From Dudresnaya verticillata (Eukaryota): a stretch of 64,000 nucleotides of DNA. Both the position numbers and the translations under genes were made by a program. The stretch is taken from assembly GCA_977862235.1 (NCBI GenBank), contig OZ374560.1, positions 806,001 to 870,000 of the forward strand, read 5' to 3'. How positions within the stretch are numbered: position 1 is the stretch's first letter; every line of letters begins with the position of its first letter. Below are positions 5,601-61,900 of the stretch, in pieces. The notes under the pieces were generated by a model. That model was not told the DNA's origin, did not search any database, and worked only from the letters and a program-made list of their open reading frames with translations.

Positions 5601-6938
5601 GATGTCCGCTTCGTCGTACTTGTCTCGTACCTTCTGCAAATGTGACTCTAAGTTGAAGCCTAGGCACTTGAGAAGCGGACGTCCTAGCAGGACCTCATCC
5701 ATGTCTTGGTCGATGATCAGGAACTCCACTTTGCGCAGTCGGAGCGGCCCACATGGCAAGCATACAGTGATGTTGAAAAGAGCCTTCGCAGACGCGGTGA
5801 TTGTACCTTGCTTCAGCTCGACTGCGGGAGATAAGTTGATTGGTGTGTCGAACGTCACAACCTCCACAGCCTTGCGAGCCTGCTGGAGCAGCTTCACGAT
5901 CCGTTTAGGGAGAGCAGACTTGTCTGCACCGTAGTCGCCTAGGGCAATCACTTCGACTGACTCGTGCAGCAAAGCCTTCCAGCGTCCATCTCCAAGTGCA
6001 CCCCTTGAGATGGCGGCTACCTTAGCCTTCTTCTTCTCATCGTAGAACGCATCCATCAGCCTTTTCATCTCTTCTGGGCTGGTCATGTCGCAGTCCATGA
6101 CTCGATGATGCTTGTGGCAGGCCTTGTTCAGGCACGGCTCTGACCACTCGGTGTTTTTGCGTTTCTTCTTCCTCTTCGAAGCGTCGCTTCTGTCTGCATC
6201 CTTGGAGGTGCTAGGGTTCTTTTCTCGGCTTTTGTCATTGCTGTTGCCGTGCTCGCTCTTGTCTTTTCGAGCCTTCTTCGGGTTGCTGTCTTTGCCCCGG
6301 CCTCCGTTGTTGCTCGGAGGGCTTTCTTTTTCTGCGTACGTAGCGATGTCGACGTACGTCGCAGTGACCTGTTCAAGGAAGTGGTGGAAGCTTCTCTTGT
6401 CCTCTTCCTTCCAGTACTTCATGCTCGACTTTACCTTGTCGCGCAGGAGTCGCGGCTCCAACTTCGGGACGAGCTGTTGGATGAGGGCTTTCGGTGCCTC
6501 GGTGATGACCTGTGCCGCTCGGTTCCTCTGCAGCTCGGTTGTCACTGACGTGAAGAACTGCTGTGCGGCACCTTGGGGGTCGGAGCTCTTCGGCTTGAAC
6601 TTTACCCGGTCCAGTGCGTTGGACACCTGGTTGTCGATGTCTTTGTGTGAGACACGGCAACGAGCCTCCAGCCATGTGTTCACTTGCTCGTCAGTGAGCG
6701 TTGCGGTAGAAGTGACGCCGGGGAAAGCCTGGCACAGGATCATCGATGTGAGTAGCTCGGGATCCGTGCACGACTTGAGGCCTGCCGGCGGTATGCGTTG
6801 CGCCGGTGTCCGAGAGCGGTTGAACTCCTCGAACTTGTCCTTGTAGGCGCGGTACTTTATCTTGAACGCGAGAAGCTCCTCTCCCATCACTGACTTGAGT
6901 TGCGGCGCCGTAATCGACGAAATAGTAGCGCCTGCCAT
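2667..6938 (-). pseudogene. gag-pol polyprotein pseudogene of Gypsy A
   Basis: Probable ATG at 6938. Motifs: CLNKACHKHHRVMDC knuckle, GDYGAD protease, QWLDD RT, FTDA/EKEA/TDH RNase H, H-H-CLHC and D-D-E integrase. An in-frame TAG at 4260-4262 sits where element B has Gln (TQVP). Two compensating frameshifts lie at ~2960 and ~2910. Confidence 0.9.
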
Positions 6939-38051: not shown

Positions 38052-40079
38052 TTAGGAGTTCGTCGAAAACTCCGCTCCGGCCTTTTTAATCCAACGAATG
38101 AAAGCAGACACCCGTGTGAATATCATCGGAAACTTCCAATCCCCGCACCTCACCCCGAAGGATGTCAGTCCCACTAATATGGGTTCTCCTCCTTCGTAAT
38201 ATATCAGAGGTCCGCCACTATCACCAGAGCTGTGTTTGGAAACGCAAGAGCAACAAAAAAAGCAATAAAACAAAAAGTAGTGTGAAGTCAGATCGAAGTG
38301 CCGTCACGTTGGGATTGTACCGTATCTTGTTTCGTATTTAAGTGGAAGAACTTACCAGGTCCCACATCCTCCTCTGGGCAGCACGCCAGCACATATCTGT
38401 AGCGAGTCGGAAATTAATGTACCACGAAGAGTCTCAGTTCCATGAATATGGGCACACGGTTTGTGCGGTACAACTTCAATGTCAACCTGCCGAAGCTTAA
38501 TATCTGCTCGTGCGCCGTACAGGAAGCGCCCATATCCTGCAGCCCTGACATGAGATCCGTCAGAAGGAATACCAAGGCGTGCGTTCACCTTCATGAACTT
38601 TGCAGACTTCGGAGCATCTGATTCAAGCTCGACTAGAGCAATATCGTTGACCGAGGCTGGATCAAACGGATACCTGGGATGGGTAAATACTCGAGTTATT
38701 CCAATCCGAGACCCCCCAGCGCAGTTCGAAGAAGCTTTCGTAGCACCTAGACAGGCAAAATAGTCCCCATCAGCTGCAATTCTGCAGTGTGCAGCAGTGA
38801 GAAGCCAACGACTCGAAATGAGAACTCCCGAACAGCGGAAGAAAGGAGGCATTACAAGGGCCACCATGTAGGGGGAGAGGTTTTCTGAAATGCTTCGACC
38901 TCCAACAATGCTTACTGACGTCTGCAAATCCGAATCGTATCTTGTGTTTCCTGATAAGCCTTTTGCAGAGGGAGCACTCTTCTCGCCGGAGGACCTCTCT
39001 GCAATGACTTGCCCGCCTGGACGTTGTAGAGGAGAAAATTGCCTGGTCGCAATTGGTGGACCGGGCAGGTCGGCATTGATTCGCACAGGACAGATCGTTT
39101 CTGCGTTGACAGTGTTGATACCGATACCAGATCCTCTCGCATCCACTGAAACACAAAAGGTGTTCCTGAAGTACTCCGTCGTCGCACAAATTTCTTCTTG
39201 CACACAGTCATCGGATGAAGTACACGTACGTATGGTCGATGGAAAACATGCGCACAACGGTCCACCACTGCAGGCGCTCAAAGGTGCGTCGAGTGTAAAA
39301 CAGTTCCAGTTCCTGGCGCAGTCGGAATTCTTTCGGCACGGGTCAAGAGTGTATCCATTGGTGTTCTGTATTGTGGAAGTTGTTTTTTGAACCGCGAACA
39401 GACCCTCCTCTGTCTTCATCGAAACGCAAAGAGGAACTTTCCCAATCGGTGTATTTGCACACACCTCTCCCTTCTCGCAGTCTGCATCAATCAAGCAGCG
39501 ATCCAGAAAATCGTCTAAACAGAAGCAGGGGCTTCTTCCGTAGCAATTCGTAACAAACGGAGAGCCATACAGGAATTTGCATCGTCTGGCTCCCTTGCAC
39601 TGTGAATCTTTAGAGCACGGACTGAGCCAAAGACCATCACCCGGCGGTTTTAGGGGCTTTTTCTTAGTGAAGGCAGCAAAGTTCTTGGCTGCAGGAGAAA
39701 CACAGATGGGACGAAGGACGTAGTCGGCAGCGAGGCAAACTTCACCACGAGGGCAGTCAGACTTGGATTCGCAGAATTTCTGTTGCGGAGGTCGACAGTA
39801 GCAGGTTGTTGTTCTCCTGCAAGGGTCACGGCTTGAAGTTAAGCATCTTCGTGGTGCGTTGCAATCTCTGTTTGACTTGCAAATATCGAAAGTCAGGCCT
39901 GCATATGATTGAGCGTCTGGCGAAAATGGGCTGTCCACCTGAAAGTCCAGGCGCTCTTGGTTGGCAGGATGCGGCGCGGGAAGAACATGATAAGATAGCT
40001 TTTCCGGTTGTTGAGCCGCAGAAAAGTTATTTCTGTGCACGCAGATGACGAGTAGAAGCAACACAGCTGCTTTCTCCAT
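38052..40079 (-). CDS. Secreted S1 (chymotrypsin-fold) serine protease with three N-terminal Cys-rich repeats; 2 exons (40079-38356, 38229-38052), 633 aa
   Basis: Signal-like N-terminus, IVGG activation site, LTAAHC and NDIAL. Splicing restores GTCSGDSGGP. Confidence 0.93.
38230..38355 (-). other. Spliceosomal intron (126 nt, phase 2)
   Basis: GTAAGT donor, CTGAC branch site and ACAG acceptor. Removal joins TG+C into the conserved Cys before GDSGG. Confidence 0.92.
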
Positions 40080-43792: not shown

Positions 43793-44929
43793 TCAAGCGT
43801 CGTGTTCGCTGGGTTGTCCACCCTCTACGCCTTGCTTTCTGGCCGCTTGCTCAGGTCCCGCAATGGAGTAGAAGTACAGCTCGTTCCACGTCTCAATGAT
43901 CATCCCGGGGGTGCCCTCATCCCACCCAACAAAGGTAACCCGGTGGGGCTCATGGCGCCCGTCGACCGGCAGCTCCTTGAGCGGAAAGCCGCCGCGCTCC
44001 GCGTCCCAGAAGCTGACGGCGTAGTCCTTCGCAACGCCCGCCACCACACCACCAGACGGGCCGGTCTCGACGTCAAAGCTCAGGCCCTGCCAGCACCGGT
44101 TGCGCTCAAACTCGACGACGGGGGCCGTGGCGCGGCGCAGGTCCCAGCGCGTCAGCGCGTTCCTCGCGCGGCGCACGCCGCAGAACAGGCGCGTCGCGCC
44201 GCGCGCCACAACCTGCGCGACCGACCCCGGCGCGCCGGCCGGGCGGAAGTGGCCCACGCGGTCCGGCCCTGCGCGCGCGTCGAACAGGTGCACCACGCCC
44301 GCAGAGTCGCCCGCGGCCAGCAGGGGCGCGTGGTCATCATCGTGCACAAAGGCCAGCGCGCGCACCGTGCGCGACGTCGGCAGGCGGTGCGTGGCAACGT
44401 CGTCCAGACGGTGGTCGTCCGCGCGCGCCTCGAAGACCGAGACGGCTCCGCATTGCCCCGCCGCCACCACGTGCGTCCACGCGGCGTGCGCGGTGCAGAA
44501 CACGCGCGGCAGCAGCGACGCCGTGGCCACGGCCGGCGGCTCGCCGGGCGCCGCGAAGTAGGCCAGGCGCACCGACGACACGGCGTGCCGCGGCTCCGTG
44601 CTCAGCGCGAGCACGCCCGACGCGGCGTGGTACGAGTGCGACGTGACGTGCGGCAGGCGGCGCAGGCTGGCGCACACGTGGCCGGCGCGGTGGTGCAGCA
44701 GGTCGACCACGCGGTGGTCGTCCGCGTCCGAGTGCGGCAGCGCAAACGCGTGCGACAGCGGCGCGCGCTCGCGCGGCGGCGGCGGGGCCGGCGGCGCGGC
44801 GTAGGGCAGCTGCGCGCGCGGCGCGCGCGCGGTCAGCAGCGCGATGGACAGCGCCGCGCGCGACGACGCGCGGCCCAGCGACGTGTCGTGCAGTGCGGAC
44901 AGCGCGGAGCGCGGGCGGCGCGGCGGCAT
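43793..44929 (-). CDS. WD40-repeat protein with DxR motifs (DCAF-like), 378 aa
   Basis: Repeats VSVFEAR, VHLFDAR, LTRWDLRR and VSFWDAE. ATG at 44929 is in gccATG context after a poly-C leader. Confidence 0.8.
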   Translation of the reverse strand: MPPRRPRSALSALHDTSLGRASSRAALSIALLTARAPRAQLPYAAPPAPPPPRERAPLSHAFALPHSDADDHRVVDLLHHRAGHVCASLRRLPHVTSHSYHAASGVLALSTEPRHAVSSVRLAYFAAPGEPPAVATASLLPRVFCTAHAAWTHVVAAGQCGAVSVFEARADDHRLDDVATHRLPTSRTVRALAFVHDDDHAPLLAAGDSAGVVHLFDARAGPDRVGHFRPAGAPGSVAQVVARGATRLFCGVRRARNALTRWDLRRATAPVVEFERNRCWQGLSFDVETGPSGGVVAGVAKDYAVSFWDAERGGFPLKELPVDGRHEPHRVTFVGWDEGTPGMIIETWNELYFYSIAGPEQAARKQGVEGGQPSEHDA

Positions 44930-44955
44930 GGCGTGGCGCGTGGTGGGTCGGGGTC

Positions 44956-44980
44956 GGGGGGGGGGGGGGGGGGGGGGGGG
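44956..44980. repeat. G25 homopolymer
   Basis: 25 consecutive G immediately upstream of the WD40 start codon (poly-C on the coding strand). Confidence 0.9.
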
Positions 44981-45620
44981 TGGGGGTCGGGGGCGGGGGG
45001 TGGGGGTTGGGGAAAGGGTTAAGCCGCGGCGCGAGAGGGGCGGCGCGGGCGCGCGCGGCGGCGCGGCGGGTGGAGGCGGCGTCACGGCGGGTGGAGGCGG
45101 AGGGTTGAGGCGGCGGCGCGACGTCTTCTCTCTTCGAAGGCGACGCTGCGACTGGAGAGTCGGAGCGCGTCGGCGCGTCGGTCCGTCCGGCGCGTCGGTC
45201 CGTCCGGCGCGTCCGTCCGTCCGCCGCGGCATCGGGTGCTTACAGCGCGACAGCCTCCTTACACCGTCGCGTCGCTCGTTTGGGAACAGCCAACCGGACG
45301 GCGCCATTCTGGAAGGCACTGTACTTCCCTCGCAACAACAAAGCCGTGACTGAGCTCTGCCATTCTGACTGGAACTAACGTCACCTAACGATCGAACAGA
45401 GCATGCACTTCATTCAAGACTCAGACTCAAGACCGGAGCAGGGCTTCACGTGTTCAGACAGAACCGCAGGTTCCCGTCCAGAGCCCGACCCATTGGCCAC
45501 TGCGCCAGCGCTGCGTAGACGCCGACTACGTAGTAGTACGTAATGTGAATCCATCCTTTTGCTCCGCCTGTTCACAGCCCTACCCGTATGTACAACAACA
45601 CCACCAACACCAATCCACCC

Positions 45621-46957
45621 CTAAAGATCACAAATCCGCTTCACAATGTCCGTCTGGCAGAACCGGTTCCCGCGGCTCTCCGTACACAGCTCGCAGCAAG
45701 CCTGCTTGCACGCATCACTCTGCCCCCACCCCGTCTTGCCCCTCTCACATCTCCCGCCGCTGCGCTCCGCAAGCATCCTCCAGCACCGCGTCCCGACAGC
45801 GATGCACTTGCACGCCTTCCGCCTCTGCGTCACCTCATCGCTAGGAGGCCCGCCCTGCCCGCTCGTTGTCGTCATCGTCGTCGCCGTCGTCGCAGCCCCG
45901 CTGGTCGTCGACGAACGCGTCGTGCTGGGCGCGCTTGTCCCCTCGCCACCGCCCGGCGACACCCCGCCAAAGTGCTCCGGCGTCAGCGCCGCAGGCACCT
46001 TGCCGTTCTTGAACTCGCGCGGCTTCTGGTACTCGGCCGTCACCTTGCACGGCTCGTTCGTGCACACGCCGGGCGCGTCGTTGGCCGACATGCAGCCCTC
46101 GCTGGACCACCGCGTCATGTCGTTGTTGAACACCGGCACATGCTCGCGCTGCAGCGCGGCCCCGCCCTGGATGCGCACGTACGAGCACGACCAGTAGTCC
46201 CCAAAGTACCCCCACGGCTTGGGCTCCTGTTGCTGCTCGGACTCGATGGACGAGCCGCACCCGCCGTACCACACCCACCCCAGCACATAGTCGCCGTCGG
46301 CCACGACGGGAGGGATCGTCACGTCGAACGTGTAGTACCCAGGCGCGAAATCGTGCTGCTCGGCGTCGGACCCGATCAGCCCAAAGCCGAACCGGTCGCG
46401 GCCTAGCTCGGACTGCGCGGCGCGCCGCGGGTTGGCGCCCCAGCAGGTGTAGTAGAACGCGTTGCGCCGGTGCGCTGCCTTGTCCATCATGTCGGACGGC
46501 TTGACCAGCGTCAGCCGCACAAACCCGCCAGGCCCGTGGTTGTTGCGCTGGTACTTGATGGTGACCTTCTCGCCGCGGCCGTACGTGGCCGCCGGGTTGG
46601 ACGGGTCGCCATGGTTGGCGTAGCCGCCCTTGATGGCGCGCAGGTCGCACGGGCCTGGGCAGTTGTCCACACCGAACTGCGGCTCACCGCCCATGCGACA
46701 GGTCTGGGAGTGGGGAGATGGAGGTTGGGAAGGGGCATTGGTTAGCTCAATACTGGGACCGGTGGTGGCGGTGGTGGCGGTGGTGGCGCGGCTACTGCTG
46801 CTACTGGTGCAGCTTGCTGATGCGGCAGGTGGGAGCGGCTTACCATTGGGGCAGTGGACTCCGGATCGGACATCTGCGAGTGGGCCGCGGCAACGGCAAG
46901 AACGGCAGCGACGAGCGCCGCGGCGGCCGGCGGCGGGTAGCGGGGCGCGGCGTGCAT
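45621..46957 (-). CDS. Secreted His-brace LPMO-like copper protein with S/T linker and C-terminal 10-Cys module; 2 exons (46957-46844, 46703-45621), 398 aa
   Basis: A 25-aa signal peptide ends AAA|H. Further motifs are RNNHGPGGF (second His), GDYVLGWVW and DYWSCSYVRIQGG (axial Tyr-like). Confidence 0.85.
46704..46843 (-). other. Spliceosomal intron (140 nt, phase 0)
   Basis: GTAAGC donor, GCTAAC branch point, pyrimidine tract and CCAG acceptor. Removal fuses the signal-peptide exon in frame. Confidence 0.9.
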
Positions 46958-47070
46958 GGCGGGTGCGGATCGGTGGGGAAGCGTCGGTGCGAAGCGTGTG
47001 CTTGGAGCAGTCTGTGCACGGTGGTGGTGGTGAGCGGCGCGGGACAACTTCGAGGCAGGCCCGCGCCGCC

Positions 47071-47076
47071 TTTATA
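47071..47076 (-). promoter_or_regulatory. TATA box of the LPMO-like gene
   Basis: An isolated TATAAA in very GC-rich DNA ~115 nt upstream of the ATG. Confidence 0.65.
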
Positions 47077-47720
47077 CGCCGCGCGCATCCCGGTGCAGGC
47101 CGGCCGCGGCGGCGGAGACGGCGCGCACGGCGCCGGTGTTGCACTGGGCTGCGCCGCGGCAGTGGCACTGGCCGCGCGTTTGCGACGGCGCGACGGCGCG
47201 ACGGCGCGAAGGCGAGACGGCGATCCGTGCGCGCTACGTGGACGGGCGCGGCATGGCGCGGAGCTGGGCTGCGCGGCGGGGATGCAATTGATCGGAGAGA
47301 GCGGGTGGTCAGCGTTCGAGCCGCGGTAGCGTGGGACGACGGGGAGCGGGCGAGCACTGGGCGACGAGCACTGGCAGCGCGTGGCGCGGCGACGCGGGGG
47401 CCGGGGACGGCGCAGTCAGTGTTGACTCATTGAGTCTGCCGCGTGGCATCAGTCAGTGGTTTTGCGCGCGGCGAGGAGGCCGCGCAGCGCCGACTTCGGA
47501 GACCGAATCTGCGCGTGTAACGCACCGAATCTCAACGTCGGCGCCGCCAACGGGCGCCACACGCGCGCGCCACGCTCCGCGCTCGCGCGCCACCATTGGC
47601 GCGCGCGCGCGCCGAGCGCGCCGCGTGCCGCCCGCGCGCCGAGCGCGCAACTCGCGCGCGCTCCGCGTCTCCGTCCACGTCCGTCGTCCCTCTCAACCGC
47701 CCGCCCGCCCGCCCGCCCGC

Positions 47721-47769
<49 letters not shown>

Positions 47770-47781
47770 GCCCGCGCCGCC

Positions 47782-48451
47782 ATGGCGCCACGCCGCCCGC
47801 GCGGCCCGCGCGCGCCCGCGCCGCGCGCGCCCACGCCGCCGTCGCCCGCGCTGCAGGCCGCGCTGGTGGGGCTGGCGCGCACGCGCGTGTACAACGACGA
47901 CGACCTGCCCGCGCAGCGCCGCGAGCTGCGCCGCGTCGCGGCCGCGGCCGCGCTCTCCGACCACCTGCCGGCGCTGCTGCCGCAGCTGCACGCGCACGCC
48001 CCGCACCCGGAGGTGGGCCACGCGCGCCGCGCAAACCTGCTGCTGGCGCGCAGACACGCCGCGCCCGCGCTCGCGCCGCAGCTCGCAGACCTCGGCGCGG
48101 AGCTGCTCGCCGCCGTGTCCTCCGGCGCCGCCGCCGCGCTCCGAGTCTCTGTCGACGCGCATGCCCCGCCCGCACCGCCCGCGCGCTTTGCCGTTGTCGT
48201 GCTCGCCTCGCTCTCCGCAGATGACAACGCCGCACGCCTCGTCCAGCTCTTCGCCTCCGTCGCCGCGCACGTCCGCGACGCAAAGCCCCCGACTGCCCCG
48301 CCCCGTCCCGCCCTCACCGTCGAGCTCTGTCGCGGCGGCTCCGCCCGCTCCCCCGACCTCGCAGACCGAGTCCGACATAGGCTCAAGCTCCGCCTCACGG
48401 CCGTCCTCCTGTCTCACCTCGGCTGGGACCCCGCCGCCGCAACCCCGACCT

Positions 48452-48492
<41 letters not shown>

Positions 48493-49995
48493 TCGACCTC
48501 GACCTCGTCCTCGACCACCCCGACTCCGACTCCGGCCCCGACCCGGACCCCGACTCCGACTCTGACCCCGATCCGCGGGGCCCGCGCCCGCCCCACGACC
48601 CGCAGCCCGCGCGACGCGCGCCGGCCGCGCTTTGTCACCAGCGTGCGCACCGCCGACGTGTCGTGCACGGTAGCCCGCAACGTCGCGCACGGCGTGCTGT
48701 CCCGGCTGTTCCTGCTCAAGGTCGGCGACGTCCTCAAGCACGCCATCGACGCGTGCATCTCCACCGTGCGCGTCCTGGTGCTCTCCTGCGGCTCGTGGAT
48801 CCACCTGCGGCCGGACGCGGCCCCGGTGCACGCTACCCCGCAGATCCGCACATTTGTGTCGAGCTCCGGCGTCAAGACCCTGGAGGCCCGTGTCGACCTC
48901 CTGCAGGAGTGGGACGGGGCCAGGCTCGCCGAGGCGCTGCTGCACGGGGTCTCCGCCGCGGTGCTCGTCTTTCGTTTCGACTCGCTGTCGACGCTTGCGG
49001 GCGTGGTTGGGCGCAGCAAGGCCATTACCGACCGGTTCCCGGGCCTGACCGCGGACGTCGAGCGCGTGATGTACGTCGACACGGCCTCGGACTCGGGTTT
49101 TGACGACATGACCGACGACGTCCGCGAGCTCGCCGTCGACCGGCGGCTGCTCGAGCCGCGCGACGTCGACGTGCTGTTTGAGCAAGAGCGCGGGCCACAC
49201 GGCACGCCCGGTATCGACACGGTCTCCGGGGCCATTGCCGCGCGCGTCTCCGCGGTCAGCAGCATTTTGCACGCTGAGCTGTCCGGGCCGGCACGGCCGC
49301 ATCTGGAAACCGTTGTGCACGCGCTGAACGGCGAGATCGCGAAAGATGTGGCAAGAAAGGAGAGCGAGGACGTGATGCACTTTCTGCAGCGGCTGCGGTC
49401 TGGGATTCACACCAAAGTGACCGTGCGACGCGACCCGGGGCTGGTCTCTGTGGCGCGCGGCGACGCCACGGGGTACTCGCTGGCGGGTGGCGGGCTGGGC
49501 AAGTTTATGGGCTTTGGCGAGTACAAGGACTTTCGGGACGTGAGCGAGCGGTCGCCGTTCACGGCCGAGGCGCGCGTGCAGGTGGGCAAGGAGGCGGCCG
49601 CGGCGGTGTGCGACACCGGGCGGTTTGGCGGGCGGTGGAAGGTGGTGGCGCGCATGGAGGCGATGGTGCGCAACGACGAGCTGCTGCTGTGCGTGGCGGA
49701 CGAGCGCAAGGTGGTGCTGCAGAAGGGAGGGCGGCGGTTTGTGACCGGCGTGTACGTGACGGTGCTCGGCGGCGGCATGCACGACTTTTTGTACGGAAAG
49801 GTGCTCCGCGAGTGCGTCGAGGCCGTGCGCGCAGACCAGGGCAGCGAGGAGCAGATGGCCGTGCGCACGCTGCTCAGACTCATGCCCGACTTTGCTAGCG
49901 CGGCGTACGCGGCCAGGGGGCAGAATAGCACGCCTTGGACCGGGCGCACGGGGACGTCTACGTCGTCTTCGTCGTCGTATACGTCGTCTGGCTGA
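47782..49995 (+). CDS. Hypothetical protein (737 aa) with an internal Thr-Pro linker
   Basis: gccATGg start after a (CCG)n tract and strong third-position GC bias. (ACCCCG)n at ~48441-48570 separates two globular-looking parts. Confidence 0.85.
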
Positions 49996-51163
49996 GGGAT
50001 TGGCGGTGGTGGAAGGGGGTGGTGTATGGGATGATGGGGGGATGGGGTGTGTTTGATGTTTGCTGCTGCTGGTGGGGCTATTGTAGGTGGGGGTCGGGTC
50101 GGTAGCGTGTATGTATTTGTGTTGTACGGAGTAGGGGATTGTTTTTGCGAGTTGTGTGAGTGTTTGTACACTTTGTACAAGTTGAAGCGTGCTTCTATTT
50201 ATGTTGTGCTGTTGCGCAACAGGGTCCCGATGTAGCTTGTAGCGTGGACTTGAAGAAAGCGAAGATGTGCAAGAAGAAAAGCACAGACCGACGGGTCGCA
50301 GCACGGTTCAACGGTACTCGTTGCAGAGAAAATATGGCGGAGCTATCTGCGTCGAGCGGAGCTACCAGAAACTCGCGATGATGGCGACCGCGCTTGCAGA
50401 TAACATGTTCCGTGAGGTGATCAGAGATAGATACAAGTGGTGCAAGCACGCAGCAGCGAAGCGCATGGCCATAGCTTTAAAGAACAGCAGCTCCGTGACA
50501 TCGGCGCTAGCTCGATGCGACGAAGCGGGTCATCATCTGCGTCATTAATCGCTGACCCGGTATCGATCACGCGCAGCCTTGCCAAGTCGGAAGCTGTTGC
50601 AGCCTAAATGTTTTACCGCCGCTGCAGGGCGCTATCCGCTCACTGCAAGCGCTCATCCCCTGTGATCCGCGAGTCTATAAAGCGCTGCCACACAACACCG
50701 CGCCGGTCGAACCACCCATTTGGCCGCAAGAGCAGCCAAGCGCCAACACGCCAAAACGCGGCGTGACCGCCCGCCCGCACCGGTCCAACTTCCCCCCCCC
50801 CCGCAGCACCGTGGCCTCCGCCAAAACGCAGTCGCCGCTACAAACCGCGAAGCTGGAGCGCGTCTGTGGGGCTCTGCGAGAGAGGGGGAGAGCACCGCGC
50901 GACTTGATCAAGCGCAGGCAGGGGAGGGTGTCTTCGCGAGCTTTTCTGGCTCCCTGCGCTGGTGGTCTTTCTTGAACTCTGTCTTCGTCGTTGTCATCGT
51001 CGTCGTTCATGGGAAACGGGCGTTGCGCGTGGTCAGGTCTCCACAGAGTCTCCAATCACAGCTTGACGGACGTTATACATGTACAACAGTATATCAAACG
51101 GGATGATCGACTTGGTGTGTAGCGATTGCAATCATAAAGCGCGTTTTGGTGTGTTTGACTGTT

Positions 51164-51451
51164 TCAGACTTTGCGGTTGCGCAATTGCTTTATACAAAAG
51201 CATTTGCGCTCTTCGGTGGCTATGACGGCAGCCGCAACGATGGCAGTGGCGCGGTGTTTCCGTAATGCTGTCCGCGTCCGTAGCGCCTGCAGACGGGCCG
51301 CACGGCCCATGTCGTGCAGCGCGGCCTCCGCGCGGAAGAACGCCGCCACGCTCTCCTTCCACGCCGCCGCCGCCTCCTCCTCGGCTTTTTGCTGCACCAC
51401 GCGGCGCCACCGCAGGTCTGACAGCCGTTCCTGAGACGCGCGCGACGCCAT
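51164..51451 (-). CDS. Small basic, helical hypothetical protein (95 aa)
   Basis: ATG at 51451 and an Ala/Arg-rich helical sequence. TATAA lies ~135 nt upstream. Confidence 0.3.
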   Translation of the reverse strand: MASRASQERLSDLRWRRVVQQKAEEEAAAAWKESVAAFFRAEAALHDMGRAARLQALRTRTALRKHRATAIVAAAVIATEERKCFCIKQLRNRKV

Positions 51452-51965
51452 TGCGAGAGTGCACGGCTCTCGAACACGCGCCGGAGCACTGTAGCGTCGC
51501 TGTGTAGCTGGCAACGCACACGCCAGTGTGTGGACAGGTGTGCAGACGTGCGGGAATTATCAGCGGTCTATACCCTAGCGCATTATAAAGGGAGAGTCGA
51601 GTAAGTGCAACACTCAATGTGGGCGAGAGCTGGAGCTCACCTCTACAAACTATCTCTCTCTCTCTCTCTCCGTAAAATGGACAAACGGTCTCTCGACATT
51701 ATTCGTCTTTGCCATACCGCACTTTCCGCGTATCTCGCAAGTGCGCGCGTGAGTGAAAGGGTCTGGAGACGCGTGACAGAGGTTGGCACTGGCTGCTGCG
51801 CAGCGGCAGCGGCGGCTTTCACGGCCGTAGGCGCGTTGTAAACGCGGTGGCGAGAGAGATAAGATACGAGATCAACGGCGATGCGGCACAGCGACGCGCG
51901 CACTCTTTTTATCCGGCGGTGACAGTGACAGGCGCAATCACGCGCACACCGCGTTGCAAAGGACT

Positions 51966-53603
51966 TTATTGAAACGCCTCATCCGCGTCATCGAGCAGGC
52001 GCGAGATAAACACGCGCACGTCCATAGAATCGAGGCGTGGGACACGGCCGTGCAGACAGCGCAGCGCCGCGAGCAGCCGCCTTCCCTTCCGCGCCTGCCT
52101 GGGCACGTCACGCGCGGCCTCGTCGGGCCACCCGCGGTCGTCGACGGCAAAGCGTTGCAGCTGCGAGTTGCTCGCCACGGCCGCCAGCAGCAGCCGCTCG
52201 AGCCGCTCCGCCGCCGGCTCGCGCTGGTGGCGCAGGCTGGTGGCAAACGCGCGCAGACGCGCGCCCACGTGCGCCAGAATGCGCTCCAGGTCGCACGCGC
52301 CGATCGTCGCGTGCAGCAGCGCGATGTCCGACAGCGCCGGCGCGCTCTGCACAAGGCGCAGCAGCGCGCGCCCGCTCGCTGCGCCGTAGCACAGCTCGTC
52401 GTTGTTGTCGTCGTTGTTGTCGTTGTCGGCGGAGGAAGAGGAAGAGGAAGAGGAGGAGTCGCACTGGGGCGCGTGGCGGTGCGGCGACGGCGGAGGCGGC
52501 TTGGCCGTGGGGTTCCACCGCAGGTGCAGCTTTTGCAGCGACGCAAAGCACGGTGGTGGGGGTGGTGGCGGTGTTGCTGCGCGGGCCCACTCGCACTCGG
52601 TGCCCGGCAAGAGCTGCACGTCCAGCGCACGCAGGCCCGGGAGCAGGTGCGGCAGGTGGCGGGCGTGGCGCGGGTGCAGGACGGTCCTCTGCGCGAGGTG
52701 CGTGACGGGGTGTCCGACGAGCAGGGCCAGACGCGCGGCGTTGGAGGTGAACGAGATTGCGACAGACTCGAGGCGCCGCAGCAGGCGGAGCGACTGCTGC
52801 GTGTGCGTGGTGCCAAACGAGTCGTTGGCGTCTTCGTTGAGACTGACGTGCTTTAGGTGCGGCAGCGCCGGCGCCACTCTCCAGATGGGGTGGCAGCACC
52901 GGCGCGACGTTGCGCAGTCGCAGTAGATGTGCAGCGACTGCAGCCGCGGGCAAGCGCGCGCTAGCGCGTTGGTGGTGGCGCTGAACAGCGCGCCGTCCAG
53001 AAACGGGCAGCGCTCGCAAAAGCACGACAGCGACAGCTTGCACAGCTTGTCCAGTGTCGCGAGCGCGCCGAACAACACGCCGTGCGGCGCGCCGTCGTAC
53101 ACGTCCACCTGCAGCTCCCGCAGCGCCGGCGCGCGCGCCACGGCCGCCAGAAACGCCGCGTCGTTGAACACTCGCGCCGACCGGAGCGTGCGCGCGGCGA
53201 GCAGGCGCAGCACGGCGCCGCGCGGTGCGGCGCGGCGGCCGCGGCGCGCGCGCGCAAGCGCGCGGCACGCGGGCGCGCGCGCGCGCGGCCGCGGCGGCGC
53301 GCGCTGCAGCGCCACGTGCGCCGCGCCGCGCCCGAACGCCGCGGCCCACCGCGCGGCCTCGGGCGACCGCGCGCCCGCGCTCAGGTGCACGCGGCCCGAC
53401 AGCGCCGACACCACGGCCGCGCGCTGGCGCGCGCCGGTCTCGGACAGGTGCAGCGCGCACGCGGTCTGGCCGTACGACGCGGCGTGCGCGGCGACCGTGC
53501 GCAGCACGTCGGGCGGCGCGGCGTCGAACCAGAGCGCGCGCGAGCGGCGCGGCGGCGGCTTGGTCACGGGCTTGGAGGCGGGCGGCGTGCGGCGCGGCGG
53601 CAT
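51966..53603 (-). CDS. F-box-like / leucine-rich-repeat (RNI-like) protein, 545 aa
   Basis: N-terminal APPDVLRTVA (F-box-like) and repeated LxxLxL units (PALRELQV, PRLQSLHI, PHLKHVSL, PGLRALDV, ASLQKLHL). Confidence 0.8.
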   Translation of the reverse strand: MPPRRTPPASKPVTKPPPRRSRALWFDAAPPDVLRTVAAHAASYGQTACALHLSETGARQRAAVVSALSGRVHLSAGARSPEAARWAAAFGRGAAHVALQRAPPRPRARAPACRALARARRGRRAAPRGAVLRLLAARTLRSARVFNDAAFLAAVARAPALRELQVDVYDGAPHGVLFGALATLDKLCKLSLSCFCERCPFLDGALFSATTNALARACPRLQSLHIYCDCATSRRCCHPIWRVAPALPHLKHVSLNEDANDSFGTTHTQQSLRLLRRLESVAISFTSNAARLALLVGHPVTHLAQRTVLHPRHARHLPHLLPGLRALDVQLLPGTECEWARAATPPPPPPPCFASLQKLHLRWNPTAKPPPPSPHRHAPQCDSSSSSSSSSADNDNNDDNNDELCYGAASGRALLRLVQSAPALSDIALLHATIGACDLERILAHVGARLRAFATSLRHQREPAAERLERLLLAAVASNSQLQRFAVDDRGWPDEAARDVPRQARKGRRLLAALRCLHGRVPRLDSMDVRVFISRLLDDADEAFQ

Positions 53604-54404
53604 GGCGGCGGGGCGGGCGCGGCGGGCGTGGGGAGCGGCGATGGGGACGGCGGGTTGTTGGGCGTTTGGACGACTTGTAGTAGTAGCGGCGGTGACGTGT
53701 GCGGCGCTCTCCGTGCACGAACAGAGTGAGCCGCGTTGCGCGTGCGCGCGCTACAGGTGTAGATGTGCGCGAAACAAGTGGTGCGCGGGAAACATCAGGC
53801 GGCGGAGCATCGGCTGCTGCTGCGCCAGTGCCGACTGTCACCAACGCGCGCGCCTGCGGCGGCTGTTGTCGCGCTTGTGCAAGCGGCGCAGCGGCGCAGC
53901 GGACAGCGCATGTTGCAGGCGCCGGCGCTGCCGCTCAGGGAGTGAGCGCGCGCTGTGAGCGGCAACGGCAGGCGGACGCACGCCGCCGCGAAGCCGCGCC
54001 GCCGCCGCCAGTCGGCCAACACTGCGCACCGGCGCCGTCAACCAACGCGCGCCGCCACTGCCATCAACGGAAAACACATTTCTGCCACCCACCGCGCGCC
54101 CCGCGCCGCCCCGCCGCTTCAAGCCGCGCGCCCGTTGCGCTCGTGATCGTGATCCGCGCCGCCCCGAAGCGCCCATTCCAATTCCACGCGCCGCGCACCC
54201 CGTCACCACAGGCGCCGCGCTCGCCCGCCCGCCGCATCGCCGCCGCTCCCGGTGCCAACCCCGTCATCTCCGCCGCCGCTCCCGGTGCCAACCCCGTCAT
54301 CTCCGCCACCCCCCGCGCTGCGCTCGCGCCCGCCCGCCCGCCCGCCCGCCCGCCCGCCCGCCCGCCCGCCCGCCCGCCCGTCGGCAGCAACGACACCGCG
54401 CACC

Positions 54405-54953
54405 ACGGCCCGCCCGGCGCGCGGCTGCAGCAGCGCCGCGTGCGCGCGCGGCGCGGCGCGCACGGTCGCCGCGGCGGCCGCGGCCGCGCGCGACGCGCGG
54501 CGCGGCGCGCTGCTGGCCGCGCGCGCGCGCGCGGCCGTGGCGCGCGCGCGCGACGCGCTGCGGCGCGCGCAGCTGGACAACCGCGCGCACGCCGCCAACG
54601 GCCCGCAGACCGGGCGCGCGCGCCGCCGCCACCACCTCGCCGAGCGCTGGATTGCGCGCCAGCGCGCCGAGCTGGCAGCGTGCGACGCGCGGCTGGCCGA
54701 CGTTTGGCGCGCGCTTTGTGCGCGAGGGGGCGGGGAGGAGGGCGGCGAGGGGGAGGGGGAGGCGTGCGAGGAGGGGGGGCTTGATATTGGTGCCCAGGGT
54801 GCCCAGGGTGTCCAGGGTGCCCAGCGTGGCCAGCGTGAGCGTGGCGATGCCGCGCTTCGAGCCGTGCAGCCTGCGCAGAAGGACACGCCCGAGGTGGAGC
54901 CTGCGTCGGACGACGACGAAGATCAACACGCCGCCCGTTGTCTCGTTATGTGA
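54405..54953 (+). CDS. Helical protein ending in a CaaX motif (CLVM); no in-frame upstream ATG, putative ACG start
   Basis: Coding-like GC3 bias, acidic tail and CLVM-stop. An in-frame accACGg lies at 54405 just after a (CCCG)n tract. Confidence 0.55.
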   Translation, partial: TARPARGCSSAACARGAARTVAAAAAAARDARRGALLAARARAAVARARDALRRAQLDNRAHAANGPQTGRARRRHHLAERWIARQRAELAACDARLADVWRALCARGGGEEGGEGEGEACEEGGLDIGAQGAQGVQGAQRGQRERGDAALRAVQPAQKDTPEVEPASDDDEDQHAARCLVM

Positions 54954-54986
54954 ACGCCCCCCAAAGTGGATGGAAGAAGACCATTG

Positions 54987-54987
<1 letters not shown>

Positions 54988-55017
<30 letters not shown>
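54988..55017. repeat. (ACT)10 microsatellite
   Basis: Directly visible in the sequence. Confidence 0.9.
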
Positions 55018-55018
<1 letters not shown>

Positions 55019-55712
55019 ACACACACACCCAAAGGCTGCCCCGCCGCAACATTGCAACATGTACATACGCATAGCTTGGCATCTCTCCCTTCCCTTCTAC
55101 CCCAACTACCGACCTACCGAGCCGACAACACACAACTCACCACGGTAAAAACAACAAACTCATGCCGCTCGTCCGGCCCCCCGATCGCAAAAGCCTCCCC
55201 GCGCAGGTCTCCTGGTGCATGCGAGTAGTGTCATGACCTGCAGCGCATTTGCAAACATGCCTTTTGGAACAAGGCTGCTCAGGTGCTCGCTCACCCTCTC
55301 GCTTGCTTCTCCGCAGACGCAAAACGCACTGCGCACTCTCTCTCATTCGATCACAACACGCCCGGCATCGAGCAGGGTACAACAGAGTATAGCTCTTTCT
55401 CGCAATAGAGCGTGCGTGCGCTTCTTGCGTGCTCACCCGCTCCCCGCCTTCGCGCCTTGTCGTCGCCCCCGTCCTGACCCCGACTTCAGACCGCCTGCTC
55501 TCCCGCAATAATATCGCGGCGCGAGCACCACGCCGCGCCCACTGCTACAGCTGCTGCACTTGTCCGCGACGCTTGACTACCCTCTCCTCCGCGCTCCCGC
55601 TCCCGCTCCCGCTCCCGCCGCGCGATAATCAAAACAATGCAACCTTCCGCCGCGCCCACACCCCGCCGCGCCCGCCGCGGGGAGGCCCCACCTTTCCGTC
55701 GCCCCTCTCCGG

Positions 55713-55718
55713 TATAAA
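55713..55718 (+). promoter_or_regulatory. TATA box of the GDDGT-repeat gene
   Basis: TATAAA in GC-rich DNA ~120 nt upstream of the ATG, followed by a CA-rich leader. Confidence 0.65.
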
Positions 55719-55834
55719 GAGCCGCCGCGCCGCGCCGGTGTAGCGCTTGCTTCCTTCAAGCGCACACCCACACACTCACACAACACACACACACACACAC
55801 ACACAACTCGCAACAACACAACCTCAACAAGACC

Positions 55835-56611
55835 ATGAACACAAACGTGTCCTGCCGCGCCGTCAGCGCCGCCGCCGTGCTGCTGCTGCTTTGCTCGCAT
55901 CTCGTGTCGTACACGCTGTCGCCGTCGCACGACTTTCTGCTGCGCTTCCCCGCGGCTGACGCCACGGTCGTCCCGCCCAAGCCCGCACGCAACCCGGTGT
56001 CGGCCGCCGCCGCGTCTCTGCCGCGCGCGGTACGCGCCGACGTCTCCGCCGCTGCCGATGCCGGTGGCGCGTACGAAGACGCTGGCGGAGTAGCAGAAGA
56101 GGGTGATGGCGGTGCAGGTGACGATGGTGCCGAGGGAGGTGATGGCGGCGAGGGCAACGGAGAAGGTGAAGCCGGTGACGGGACCGGCGATGACGGAACT
56201 GGCGGCGATGACGGAACTGGCGGCGATGACGGGACTGGCAGCGACGGGACTGGTGACGATGGGACTGGCGACGATGGGACTGGCGGCGATGGGACTGCCG
56301 ACGATGGGACTGGTGACGATGGGACTGGCGATGATGGGACTGGCGACGATGGGAGTGGCGACGATGGGAGTGGCGACGATGGGACTGGCGACGATGGGAG
56401 TGGCGACGATGGGGCTGGCGACGATGGGGCTGGCGACGACGGCACGGACGGCACCGACGCTGGCACAGATGACGACGGGTCGGGCGGCGGCGGCGTGGTG
56501 ATCATTAACATGGGCAGCGATGACGGGGCCGCGACGCAGATCACCGGCGACGCGGACGGCACGGCCGCGGACGTCAGTCGGCCAGTGGTGGCGCCCCAGT
56601 CGAAGGCGTAG
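55835..56611 (+). CDS. Secreted or membrane-anchored Gly/Asp-rich protein with GDDG(T/S/A) repeats (258 aa)
   Basis: accATG start, hydrophobic N-terminal segment, ~15-nt tandem repeats at ~56170-56470 and an upstream TATA box. Confidence 0.8.
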
Positions 56612-57262
56612 TGAGAGTGTCCCGCTGCGCGTGGACCGCGCGAGCAGTTGATGATGTTGTTGTTGCTGTACCGAACTTTTTTTGTTTTTCCTTCTTGAGA
56701 CTAGTAGCAAACGTAAACGGATGAGATGATGCTGACACGCCCGGACGCAGTGCTGCGCTGCGTGTATCGCCCGCCGCGCCGCGGGCCCGCTCCTAGTCTC
56801 TCTCTCTCTCTAGCGGTGCACGATAGCGCTTTAGCGGGCGCGGCACGGGCGCGCAGGGCCCGAGCGGTCGCGTGGTGCAGCGGCACCGCGCATTGGCAGC
56901 GGGCGCGGGCTGTGCGTGCGCATGACATGACAGCGGGGCGGCGGGCGCAGGCGCGGATGAGGGCAAGGCCCGGCAGAGCGCGCAGCGGGTGCGGGCTTGG
57001 GCCACCGCTGGTGGTACTCGTGCTGAGGGCACAGACCGAGAAGTGCACAGGCGCGGCGGTGCAGTGCGGCGCGCACTGCGATATACTCGGTCGAGTCGGG
57101 CAGGCACCACGGCAAGGCCGGAACGGTTGGTGGCTCGGTGGCTGGCTGGCGTCTTTGAAAGACGTGGCGGACAGACTCTCTCTCTCTCTCTCTCTCTCTC
57201 TCGTTTCACGACTTGGGTTGCTTGGGCGACAAAAGTGTAGGTTTGACAAGTGTGGGTCGGCG

Positions 57263-57922
57263 ATGACGGTGGGGCGGTTCGAGGTGGGCGGGGACCGGAG
57301 TGTGGCAGGAGGAGGCGGGCAGGGCAAGTCGAAGACAGGAGGAGGAGGAGGAGGAGGAGGAGGAGCGGGCAAGACTCAGACTCTGCCCAAGGCGGTACCC
57401 GGGTGGGAGCTGCACCTGGGCGACGCGCAAAGGCTGCTGGAGGCGGGCACACGTGCGGCAACGGCAGACGCGCTGCGACTACTCGACCTCGCCGTCGGGC
57501 TGGTGGGCGGCGCGCGCGGGGTGCGCGGCGCGACGATCACGGCCGCGGCCGGCGTGCGGTGCCTGCCGGAGTACGTGGTGCGGCGCGTGGAGTACGAGAG
57601 CGCCATGCGGCGCATGAACTGGTCGGAGATGGAGATTGCGCGCGTGCACGCGCTGTTTGGCGAGTGCTGGTACTATGGCGACGTGCGCGACGCGGCGCGC
57701 GCAGAGGAGTACCTCATGCGCGCGGCCGCGTGCGGCAACCGCTTTGCGCTGCGCGCGCTGCGCTGGCTGGCGCCGCGCGCCGCGCAGGGGCTCGGCGGCG
57801 GCGCCGACGAGGCGCGGCGCGAGCTGCTCCGCGCCGTCGTGGCGCGCGACCGCGAGCGGGCCGTGGCGCTGGCGCGGCTGGGCATGGGGCTGGGCGGCGG
57901 GCTGGGCGGCGGCGGCGGGCTG

Positions 57923-57954
<32 letters not shown>

Positions 57955-58534
57955 GGGCGGCGCGCTGCGGCCCGACGCCACCGTGGTGATGTGCATGCGC
58001 GGCGCAGAGCAGAAGGGCGTGAGCGCGAACAACGTCGGGTACGCGCTCGCGCACGGCGCGCGCGGCGTGGCGCGCGACGTGCGCGAGGCGATGGAGTACT
58101 ACGAGCTGGCGCGCGGGTGGGGCAGCGCGGCGGCCGCGGTCAACCTGGCGCTGGTGTGGCACTACGGCGGCGACGGCGCCGTGCGGCGCGACGGCGCGCG
58201 CGCGCGCGCGCTCTACGAGGAGGCGCTCGCGCGCGGCGAGCGCGACTACGCGCCGCGCAACCTCGGCATTCTGCTGCAGCACGGGCTGCGCGGCGTGCGC
58301 GCCGACGTGTGCGCCGCGGCGCGGTGCTACCTGCTCGGGCTGCGCGAGGGCGGCGCCGCGGCGAGGGCCAAGTGCGCGCGCAGCTTGCGCGCGGTGCTGC
58401 GGTCGTGGAGGTTCAAGCTTGGCGCGGGCGCGCTGCGGCACGAGTGCGCGGTGGCGCTCGCGGCGGTGGAGGTGGGCGGCGGCGGCGGCGGCGACTTTGT
58501 GGCGGGAGAGAGCGTTGGGCCGTACGGCATGTAG
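57263..58534 (+). CDS. SEL1-like repeat protein (~423 aa)
   Basis: SEL1 motifs NNVGYALAHGARGVARD, AAVNLALVWHYG and PRNLGILLQHGLRGVRAD. The start is uncertain: the ORF is open from 56726, but that extension crosses CT microsatellites. Confidence 0.88.
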
Positions 58535-58983
58535 CAATGTTTGAGTATAAAACGTATGCTCTGCGCGGTGCTTGTTTTGCCGCGGTGCGTGCGCTCTCAT
58601 GGTCGCCGGTGCGTGCGCCTCACCTCGCGCCAGCCCTAAGTGCGTGACGCGCGCGAAATTCAGCGGAAAACCACTAACAACAGCGCCGCTGGACGCGCGC
58701 TGCGGCCGTAACCGCGCCGCGCCGCGCCACGTGGCCACGGCGGACCGCGGAAAGCGCGCGCCGGTCTGGTCACACTGTCACTTCCAACGTCCCGTAATCG
58801 TATATCCCGCCGCCACAGAGTCCGCACCGCACACACACACCCTCTCACCCCGCGCTTCCCGCTTTTGCAAATTCGCCCCGCGCCCCCACACACGCACCCC
58901 ACACACACCCACACACACACACACCACCACCCACCCACCCCCCCGCCCCGCCCCGCCCCGCCCCGCCCCGCGCCACGCCCGAC

Positions 58984-61900
58984 ATGTCCCTCCCCGCCCC
59001 GCCCGACCTGCCGTACCAGGCGCGCGCGGTGCACGCCGCGCTGCAGCCGTACCTGCCGTCGCCCGGCGCCGCCGCCCGCCACAGCCGCGAGCTGCGCGCG
59101 GCCGACGCCGCGCTGGTGCGCCTGCAGGCCGCGCTGTCGCTGGCCGCGTCGTCGCCGCCGGCCGCGCCCGTCGCGCTGCTCGACCCGGGCGCCGCGGCCG
59201 ACGTGCGCCACGCGCTGCGCGACCTGCGCGAGGTTGCGGCGCGCGCCGCCGCCGTGCGCTCGCTGGCGCGCCCGCGCATCCGCCCCAACGAGGCCGTGCC
59301 GGCCGCCCCGCCGCACCTGCACCGCTCCGCCAAGCACCACCACCACCACCACCACGCTGCGCCGCCGCCGCCGCCCGCGCGCCCCGCCGCGCTCTCCAGC
59401 CACGACAAGCGCCGGCTGGAGCACGCTGCGAACACCATTGACAATGTCGTGCAGGTCGCCCTGTGGAAGAACCGCGACGCCCTGGCCGCAGTCGCCGCTG
59501 CCCCGCACCATGCCCCCGCAGTCGCCGCCGCGCGCCTCCCGGACGTCCCCGCCCCGCCCCCGCTCGCACCCGCCGCCGTCGCCGCAGCCGCACACCACCA
59601 CCACCACCACCACCACCACCAACAACAACATCCCTCACTCGTCACCGCTGCAAACACGCCCCCAGGCGCAGGCGTCCCTGTCGTCCGAAAACCAAAGGTG
59701 GCACTCGTGCGCCACCGCATGGGCCGCAAGGGCCGCCTCTTCAGCCACGGCGACATGCCCACCGTCCATCGCACCGCGTCACGCCATCACAACAGCGCCG
59801 CAGACCTCAACAACCCCTTGCGCCGCCCTGCCCCCTGGGCCGCAGCCGCCGTCCGCAAATTCCCTTCCGCCGCCGCCGCCGCCGCCGCTGCTGCAGAGCA
59901 GCCCGCCCACGACGTTGTCGTCGTCGTCCAGGAAAAGGGTCCCAAGCCCTCGCTCCCCACCACGTTTGGCCCTTCCTTCAAAACTGCTGCGCCTGGTGCT
60001 GCTGCTGCTGCCTCGCCAATGCCGTCGTTTCACCAGCGCCCCACGGACGCCACCGCCCGCCGCGTCGACAGCACCATGCGCGCAGACGTCCTGCGCCGCC
60101 TCGACTCCAACCGCTTGCCAAACAACCCGCCCGCCCCCAACGCCCGTCCGTGGGAGTTTTCGCTCATCGAGAGCCCCATCACCCCACTCCGCTCGCGCAC
60201 TCTCGAGGCCGCAGAGGATGGCAAGGTTGTCATGGCCATGTGGCGCGGCCTGCGCGTCTCGGTCAAGATCATTCGCCGAGATCGCGCACGCTTTTATCGC
60301 GAGGGCGATTACTTGTACGCCCTGGGTCAGAGCCCCAACATCCCCTCGCTGCTCGGTGGACATTGGGAGGATTCGCCGAAGAAACCCGCCAAACATTCCC
60401 GCCATTCCAAAGTCAGGGCCAAAGTCTCCAAGCGTTCCTCTTCCTCCTCCTCTTCCGCCTCTGCCACAGCTGCTGCCGCTGCTACTGCCGCCGCCTCCGC
60501 TGCAGCTGCAAACGGATCCCATGCCCCAGACCATGGCGACGGCAATGTCGGCTATCTCGTCATGGAGGTTGCCAATGGCGTTAGCTTGGACAAGCTCGTG
60601 CGTGATGGAAAGCTTCCAGATCTCGTGAGCCAAATTCGCGTCCTGGACCGCGTCGTTGCCGCATTGGTCTATGCGCAGAAGATTGATCGTTCCATATCGC
60701 ATCAGGACATTCACCCAGGAAACATCCTACTCGTCCCGTCCACAGCCACAGTCCATGTCCAGAAACCCGGCAGTGGTCGCGGTGTGGCCGGCGGCAGCGG
60801 CACTGTTTTTTCCAACGCTGGCGTTGCAAACGGCAGTTATGTTGCCTCCTTGTCGTCAGCACCATCATCTCCATCTCCATCTTCAGCTCCTTCAGCGGCA
60901 GCAGCAGCATCGCTACCATCATCATCACCTTCCTCTTCCTCCTCCTCACCCTCCTCTTCTTCTCCTCCCTCTTCATCGCCTTCCCTTTCATCGACATCAC
61001 CGCTCATCCCGAGGAAGAGATCAAATCTGTCCACCAAACCCCTCACATCACCTTCAACGGCTGACCCGAGCGATTCAACAATGGATGACAGCTCGACTGC
61101 TGTCAACGTTGTCGATCCACGGCGCTTGTCTGTTCCTCTGCCAAACACGGAGCCTGAACGAGACATTATCATCGACGAGTTTGGTTCCATGCAAAAGAAG
61201 GGCGAGCTAGGAGCGCCCACCTTTGTCCCTCATGTCCCCTTGAAACCAGGCACTGGACCCCGCCAAAAGAGAGTCGCTTCGGATCGGCCTCAAATACCCA
61301 AAGTCGAAGAGGTCGAGGAAGCGTTGACCGTTTTGCAGCGAGTCGCATTGCACAACAAACTGGACGCCGCCGCAATTTCCGAAGCCGACGTCGGCCATGC
61401 TCGAAGGCAAGAGCCTGGTAACAACAGTAACATGCACCATCATAATAATAGTAGCGGCAATCAGAACGACGACAAGGACAAGAACGACAACAACAAGAGC
61501 AAGAACAACAAGGCCGTGGCACCGGCAACAACTCCTTCTCCCCACGTCATTGTCGAGTCAGCCAAGGCCGCACCTCAAGGAAGGCTCTCGCGTTCGTCGA
61601 CCATTGCAGCTTCAATAGGCACGACCACAAGTTCACTCACAAGCACGGATGACCGCCACAAGGGTGGCTCCAGATCCAACGGCTTGCTCACTTCGACAGT
61701 CTCTTCATACACTGTCAAGGTCATGGACTTTGCTCCGGCCTTTGAAGCAGACGGTACAAGGAGGGTGTCGTCTTGGACAATGAACGAGGCAGTCTCGGGT
61801 TATTGTGCACCAGAAAAGGCAACGTCAAACATGTGGCGAAAGATGCAGTACGCCAAAGAAAAGGAGCGTGAGCGTGAAAGAGAGCGAGAACGGGATCGTG

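Follow-up and report, generated by a model that had tools for sequence, protein, structure and literature searches.

An intron-split LPMO-like protein from a red alga and its unclassified, AA11-adjacent family

The minus-strand gene at 45621..46957 of the window (the whole analysed stretch of 64,000 nucleotides) raises the question whether an LPMO-like copper protein lies hidden behind an intron in a red alga and, if so, whether such a protein would cut polysaccharide or only hold its metal. Any answer depends on the gene model. Read without splicing, the frame that starts at the ATG ends at a stop after 71 codons; the spliced frame gives a 398-residue precursor with one stop and a predicted mature chain of 373 residues. 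Within the 64-kb window the gene is present as a single copy, with these features:

47071..47076, minus strand: TATAAA, candidate TATA box, 114 nt upstream of the ATG; seen in the sequence, with a putative role
46957, minus strand: ATG of the LPMO-like gene, seen in the sequence
46844..46957, minus strand: coding part of exon 1 (114 nt, 38 codons), made up of a 25-residue signal-like peptide and mature residues 1–13; aligns with the N-termini of 21 homologues
46880..46882, minus strand: codon of His26, the predicted mature His1 and candidate copper ligand, from conservation and model alignment
46704..46843, minus strand: intron of 140 nt, phase 0, at a site common to the homologues
46745-46741, minus strand: CTAAC branch site, 42 nt before the intron end
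45621..46703, minus strand: coding part of exon 2 (360 codons plus TAG), GC3 0.89

The predicted removal of the 140-nt intron, which had been proposed in the earlier note as the step joining the leader to the mature chain, is strongly supported. The intron has a GTAAGC donor, a pyrimidine tract and a CCCAG acceptor. It should be noted that 47 GT-AG pairs keep the frame open, so that the open frame by itself cannot fix the junction; it is the homologues that pick the pair. For example, the spacing from His1 to the CxGPC motif is 27 in the window protein and likewise 27 in 11 of the 23 His1-keeping hits of the first search, and it lies between 19 and 29 in 21 of these 23. Two homologue hits carry 30–45 additional residues exactly at the junction site, and among the called proteins that run past this site without a normally spaced His1 segment 13 of 17 have a Gln there (counted by eye), as compared with none of the 21 intact homologues. 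Such a Gln is what read-through of the CAG acceptor would give. The transcript-derived protein from Gracilaria changii (P0022) has no interruption at the site. Together with the 398-residue frame, the spacing and the read-through pattern bear the proposed intron out.

In the translation of the spliced frame the leader is hydrophobic and ends in three Ala, directly followed by His26. Cleavage after Ala25, by which His1 would be freed, is suggested by conservation. Residue counts given here and below for the family outside its sister clade refer to an alignment of 265 proteins (270 domain rows, among them fragments), and for His1 the position was counted backwards from the conserved Pro7 in 130 rows, two of which are truncated and one of which has Arg. 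His1 is thus found in 127 of the 128 rows reaching the site, the residue preceding it is small in 126 of 126 (A, S, G, C or T), and a hydrophobic stretch is present in 119 of 119. A His directly behind a signal-like peptide, as the earlier note had it, is therefore what both the precursor and the family show, and the motifs quoted there were all found again, namely RNNH (with His69 of the mature chain), GDYVLGWVWYGG and GDYWSC (Gly181, Asp182, Tyr183 and Cys186).

A search of 3,359 candidates with the exon-2 protein yielded 89 relatives, with identities that reach 66% (64–66% for full-length relatives); profile searching gave 192 relatives among 1,945 candidates, and 600 clusters at 50% identity, 455 of them with E up to 1e-10 (150 of the 600 clusters were listed). 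Members with a species name are from Agarophyton chilense (at least five paralogues), Gracilaria domingensis (three), Gracilariopsis chorda and Gracilaria changii, and, within the Bangiales, from Porphyra umbilicalis, P. purpurea and Neoporphyra haitanensis. All of these are annotated as hypothetical or unnamed or carry bare gene ids, and in 66 of the 89 first hits the gene call lacks the His1 exon. When 57 chosen domains were placed in a quick tree, the window protein fell with the Gracilariales rows into a 16-row clade (SH-aLRT 100), in agreement with the red-algal origin that had been presumed from the letters; the Bangiales rows are in other clades. The host is accordingly likely to be a florideophyte. 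The cluster of P0275 contains PhM00069.1 and PhF00066.1 of N. haitanensis, names that hint at a pair, one male and one female, belonging to a sex-linked region.

The family extends beyond the red algae. By way of a distant hit, P0278 (E 6e-11, with a profile match of probability 99.8 over 206 columns), 76 metagenome loci (L002-L077) of 1.0–1.9 kb were reached. Almost all of them contain a long frame free of interruptions, one ends in poly(A), and they look like eukaryotic transcripts. They form a separate, long-branched sister clade (support 100, with 11 rows sampled in the quick tree), in which RNNH and DYYSC are near-invariant. Its C-termini are diverse and comprise a CBM2-like sandwich, Cys-rich modules of small size and hydrophobic tails that resemble anchors. 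Few binding modules were recognised, and these sit outside the subclade of the window protein: CBM_2 scored above cut-off in 1 of 22 scanned sister-clade loci, and a fusion of the family domain with a ricin-B lectin was found in 1 of 105 distant members (P0257). The latter, a JGI record, branches outside the named red-algal rows. GTDB genomes, searched with P0257, contained a match to its lectin part alone, at one locus, and no relative of the LPMO domain; viral contigs gave none either (0 of 9 pattern matches), both being weak tests with few exact patterns. Two unnamed viral models match the fold at E 1e-4 to 5e-4. By Atlas feature match, which gives leads only, the nearest cluster is unnamed and mostly from Zoopagomycota (0.94), followed by an SCE4755-type monooxygenase-like cluster, a giant-virus cluster, DUF7492 and LPMO_10.

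The fold was examined with a homologue, P0013 (66% identical, His1 at residue 7), and not with the window protein itself. From an 81-row alignment P0013 was modelled with a pLDDT of 94.3 and a pTM of 0.92. Foldseek with this model returned 24 matches at E up to 0.001 and 12–17% identity, with AA11 first, then AA15, AA10, AA9, AA13 and AA16. When the model was compared with 48,161 representative chains, ranks 1–24 were all LPMOs, X325 or the same-fold NIS1. The best match is AA11 (Z 10.4, rmsd 4.2, 163 aligned residues, about 20% identity); the other Z scores are 9.3 for AA13, 9.2 for AA10, 9.0 for AA15, 8.5 (up to 8.8) for AA9, 7.5 for AA14, 7.4–7.7 for X325 and 6.9 for AA16, and the first unrelated chain follows at 5.8. 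The LPMO-like fold is in this way supported by the P0013 model.

Three further features describe the domain layout:

45969..46703, minus strand: remainder of the LPMO-fold domain, mature residues 14 to about 258, from the family profile (E 1.5e-118), the homologue model and the fold searches
45831..45968, minus strand: Ser/Thr/Gly-rich linker, boundaries approximate, seen in the translation
45624..45830, minus strand: C-terminal module with 10 Cys, of no known family, from the Cys positions

The 10-Cys pattern occurs in 67 of 269 family proteins examined; it has no Pfam match and no usable Atlas match. A single-sequence model of exon 2 (pLDDT 37) gave nothing in Foldseek at E <=0.001, which leaves the C-terminal module without a fold assignment. 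The window protein has no hydrophobic tail at its C-terminus (judged by eye). A catalytic domain followed by a Ser/Thr linker and a small module is the usual layout of modular CAZymes (PMC8615602), and the layout is for this reason counted in favour of an LPMO-like enzyme.

The residues from which a copper site would be built are the following, in addition to His1:

46536..46544, minus strand: Asn67-Asn68-His69 (218/220, 207/220 and 217/220 rows); His69 is the predicted second brace histidine
46470..46472, minus strand: His91, a third conserved His confined to the algal branches (252/259 rows; Phe in 74/75 sister-clade rows)
46194..46202, minus strand: Gly181-Asp182-Tyr183, with Tyr183 as predicted axial residue and Asp182 as the conserved acid of the family

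The structural register agrees with such a site. Residue 7 of the model (His1) opens the alignment at the first residue of the matched chain in nearly all LPMO rows. In the last strand (189-200), if taken as ungapped, the Tyr of the family falls on Tyr184 of TdAA15A, Tyr158 of MtAA16A and Phe185 of ScAA10C, which are axial or active-site aromatics (PMC5823890, PMC10088020, PMC12186267). Asn67-Asn68-His69 aligns with Ala-Thr-His of the AA11 structure 7p3u, in a weak stretch of the alignment, and in the profile alignment to AfAA11B Gly-Asp-Tyr stands opposite Glu139-Met140-Tyr141 (described in PMC12186267). Position 183 is occupied by Tyr in 233 and by Phe in 15 rows, i.e., by an aromatic in 248 of 258, so that the set of His1, His69 and Tyr183 put forward in the earlier note (127/128, 217/220 and 248/258) is conserved and in register with solved LPMOs. 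Asp126 (227/235 rows) and Trp158 (260/262) are conserved as well. In the sister clade His1 is present in all 70 occupied rows, His69 in 73 of 73, and Asp182 and Tyr183 in 75 of 75.

The second sphere differs from the usual one, and here too what had been noticed in the single sequence, a Gly at the usual Glu/Gln site with an Asp adjacent to it, held up. In the family, position 181, two residues before the Tyr, is variable: of 260 rows, 247 have one of the residues Gly, Ala, Ser and Pro, two have Gln and none has Glu, and Asp182 is found in 244 of 260. In AA9, AA10 and AA11 the Glu/Gln positions H2O2 (PMC12186267). When this Glu was changed in AfAA11B, Asp retained more activity than did Gln or Asn (PMC12186267), which indicates that an Asp can serve, although Asp182 sits at another sequence position. 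It may be speculated that Asp182 and Asn67/Asn68 are the replacements for the missing Glu/Gln.

On this basis the gene product is predicted to be a secreted LPMO-fold copper protein, and it seems to us somewhat probable that it cleaves beta-1,4-linked wall polysaccharide, the most plausible target being cellulose, or fibrils like it, of the alga itself in the course of wall remodelling. After removal of the intron, signal peptidase would cut behind Ala25 and free His1. One copper would then be held by the amine and ring of His1 and by His69, with Tyr183 beneath, as the register of the homologue model suggests. The reduced copper and H2O2 or O2 would, by analogy with LPMO chemistry, oxidise a glycosidic carbon, with Asp182 and Asn67/Asn68 speculatively doing the job of the absent Glu/Gln, and the linker and the 10-Cys module might, to go by the architecture, tether the enzyme to the wall.

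Red seaweed walls have fibrils of cellulose, xylan or mannan. The preferred putative substrate is a fibrillar polysaccharide with beta-1,4 linkage because the same active-site motifs recur in the non-algal-looking sister clade, the hosts of which are unlikely to make agar and one member of which has a CBM2; agar or carrageenan is less likely. A bolder version holds that the family is a new catalytic LPMO family with a second sphere of its own (Asn-Asn-His, Asp-Tyr and the algal third His), that it has multiplied hugely in red seaweeds, where it would be the main oxidase for remodelling the wall, and that some of its branches act on sulfated galactans (agar, porphyran, carrageenan). This we consider rather unlikely; the literature search found no LPMO report for sulfated galactans. 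Counting against any lytic reading are the missing Glu/Gln at Tyr-2, the conserved Asp beside the site, which recalls X325, and the AA16 enzymes, which have a normal brace and are described as H2O2-producing oxidoreductases (PMC10088020).

The GC content rises from about 0.50 (window positions 1-44000) to about 0.72 (44001-60000), where a gene island starts. The ORF at 47782-49995 (+), which is divergent from the LPMO-like gene and 825 nt apart from it, and that at 51966-53603 (-) are long, with a GC3 of about 0.9 and no Pfam match. Two Sel1-repeat genes adjoin each other at 56726-58534 (+) and 58984-63765 (+), the second of which also carries a kinase-like domain. At 38352-40079 (-), where the GC of the window is lower, lies an ORF of 575 residues that starts with a hydrophobic stretch and has a trypsin domain at its C-terminus. 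ORFs of LTR retrotransposons, with reverse transcriptase, RNase H and integrase, are found at 15518-20323 (-), there also with a chromodomain, and at 2937-6938 (-), where they are split over two frames.

The main rival to polysaccharide cleavage is a non-lytic copper binder like X325/Bim1, in which Asp182 would be the fourth ligand and which would store, shuttle or buffer copper in the wall. It is possible but unlikely. Asp182 (244/260 rows in the algal branches, 75/75 in the sister clade) lies in the P0013 model in a coil just before the Tyr strand, from where it could reach the metal, and the fold match to LaX325 (Z 7.4–7.7), the Tyr-2 position with no Glu and 2 Gln in 260 rows, and the hydrophobic tails of several sister-clade members fit a copper binder, too. 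However, the axial Tyr/Phe is retained (248/258), and the lytic families outscore X325 in the fold search. X325 proteins are described as GPI-anchored and without CBMs (PMC13353379), whereas the C-terminus of the window protein is a Cys module lacking any hydrophobic tail, and sugar-binding domains occur in two relatives. Hundreds of diverged clusters would, in addition, suit substrate diversification better than a chaperone. The binding-module fusions, since they point to a polymer, also speak against an AA16-like oxidase, the brace of which would make H2O2 or oxidise small wall molecules and thereby feed peroxidases or cross-linking, with no cutting of polysaccharide. For such an oxidase there is precedent in MtAA16A and AnAA16A (PMC10088020), an acidic second-sphere residue raises the oxidase activity of AfAA11B (PMC12186267), and AA16 is matched in fold (Z 6.9). 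Nevertheless we find it improbable: the scanned neighbours (a weak WD40-like ORF, the Sel1 proteins, the trypsin-like ORF and the retrotransposon ORFs) include no partner gene.

A lytic enzyme could also be directed against the cellulose or chitin in the walls of other organisms (oomycetes, fungi or epiphytes) and not against the wall of the alga. AA11, the nearest solved family, is chitin-active, the family is expanded into multiple copies, and the Atlas feature match names Zoopagomycota relatives (0.94, a lead only); but the intron and domain layout conserved across the Florideophyceae and the occurrence in Bangiales would suit a housekeeping role just as well, and defence appears quite improbable to us. 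That the gene is mis-modelled or a relic is very improbable indeed in view of the intact frame with its GC3 of 0.89, the canonical splice signals, the intactness of all key residues and the 64–66% identity to full-length relatives. Cleavage of a polysaccharide of the alga's own wall is the reading that we prefer.

LPMOs in red algae have precedent in AA15, which has been reported in Rhodophyta (PMC5823890, Fig. 2 legend); the supplementary files of that paper (n=8) yielded no red-algal names. The literature search, for which most subscription journals were out of reach, found no paper on the family and no assay of a member, and a term search in the available text of a preprint on the red-algal cuticle proteome (bioRxiv 10.64898/2026.01.12.698930) did not return LPMO. 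The family is, nevertheless, large and unannotated, and gene callers often truncate its members by missing the His1 exon. If the proteins are active, red seaweeds have a multi-gene oxidative toolkit for wall remodelling and there is a testable handle on growth and on agar/carrageenan processing; LPMO chemistry could then run without the Glu/Gln thought to be central to the handling of H2O2. If they are inactive, they are a second Asp-containing His-brace copper family beside X325.

The sequence comparisons agree with the earlier suggestion of an unassigned family: by the Pfam and PDB comparisons made, the protein does not fall into AA9, AA10, AA11 or AA15. The window protein matched no Pfam LPMO model at E up to 10, and at the same limit PDB sequences yielded no LPMO for either the protein or the first profile. 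Matches to light-harvesting proteins among the PDB sequences were discarded as a short chance motif, and Pfam matches of relatives to Orthopox_B11R, Nis1 and the ML domain were below cut-off. Pfam LPMO_10 was matched by 0 of 81 close relatives, 0 of 105 distant members and none of the sister-clade loci scanned.

Of the known systems, AA13, AA14 and AA16 are matched in fold only (Z 9.3, 7.5 and 6.9), with no sequence match at E up to 10, and no row named AA17 appeared in the result lists of the fold and PDB-sequence searches. For AA13–AA18, PMC13431639 cites Santos 2025, the main text of which describes CelOCE, a jelly-roll without N-terminal His, and does not contain the term AA18; if AA18 is CelOCE, as we infer, its fold differs from that of the family. 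X325/Bim1 (LaX325, 6ibh/6ibi) has a His brace on the same fold (Z 7.4–7.7) and, like the family, a conserved Asp near the site, which in X325 fills the fourth copper position of proteins described as having no known activity (PMC10952591, PMC13353379). It differs in that its domain has about 150 residues as compared with about 258 in the family, which retains the Tyr; the window protein has no GPI-like tail and no Pfam match of the X325/Bim1 kind.

AA9 is similar in fold (Z up to 8.8), and its Pfam model (PF03443) is matched by 1 of 81 close relatives (E 0.08) and, at E up to 0.001, by 13 of the 105 more distant ones, of which four pass the cut-off, over profile positions of about 50–190 of 207. 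Unlike these, the window protein has no AA9 match, and the family is without Gln-x-Tyr (Gln at Tyr-2 in 2/260). AA15 (TdAA15A, 5msz) shares the fold (Z 9.0), has His1 and the axial Tyr in register, and has a signal peptide that exposes His1 (PMC5823890). However, the sequence search gave 11 hits at E up to 10, none of them 5msz, LPMO_10 is not matched, and the Ala two residues before the second His is Asn in the family.

Closest of all is AA11 (AfAA11A 7p3u, AfAA11B 9exj/9hdg, AoAA11 4mah/4mai). The identity is only 17–21%, and the 52-row profile reaches AA11 at E 0.004–0.012 over only about 60 residues (AA9 at 0.05 or weaker). The Glu-x-Tyr second sphere described for AA11 (PMC12186267) has no counterpart in the 260 family rows, which have no Glu at Tyr-2: Glu139 is replaced by Gly, Met140 by the conserved Asp, and the Ala before the second His by Asn. 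The family has, moreover, the CxGPC motif and additional cysteines, and the host range is not the same. On the other hand, AA11 gives the best fold match (Z 10.1–10.4, 160–167 residues, rmsd 3.7–4.2), its His1, its second His of the His-Gly-Gly type, its W-x-W strand and its Tyr-x-x-Cys align with the family, and like the family it extends past the core with a C-terminal meander. Judged by Pfam, PDB-sequence and fold comparison, the family is an unclassified, AA11-adjacent, LPMO-like one that is expanded in red seaweeds.
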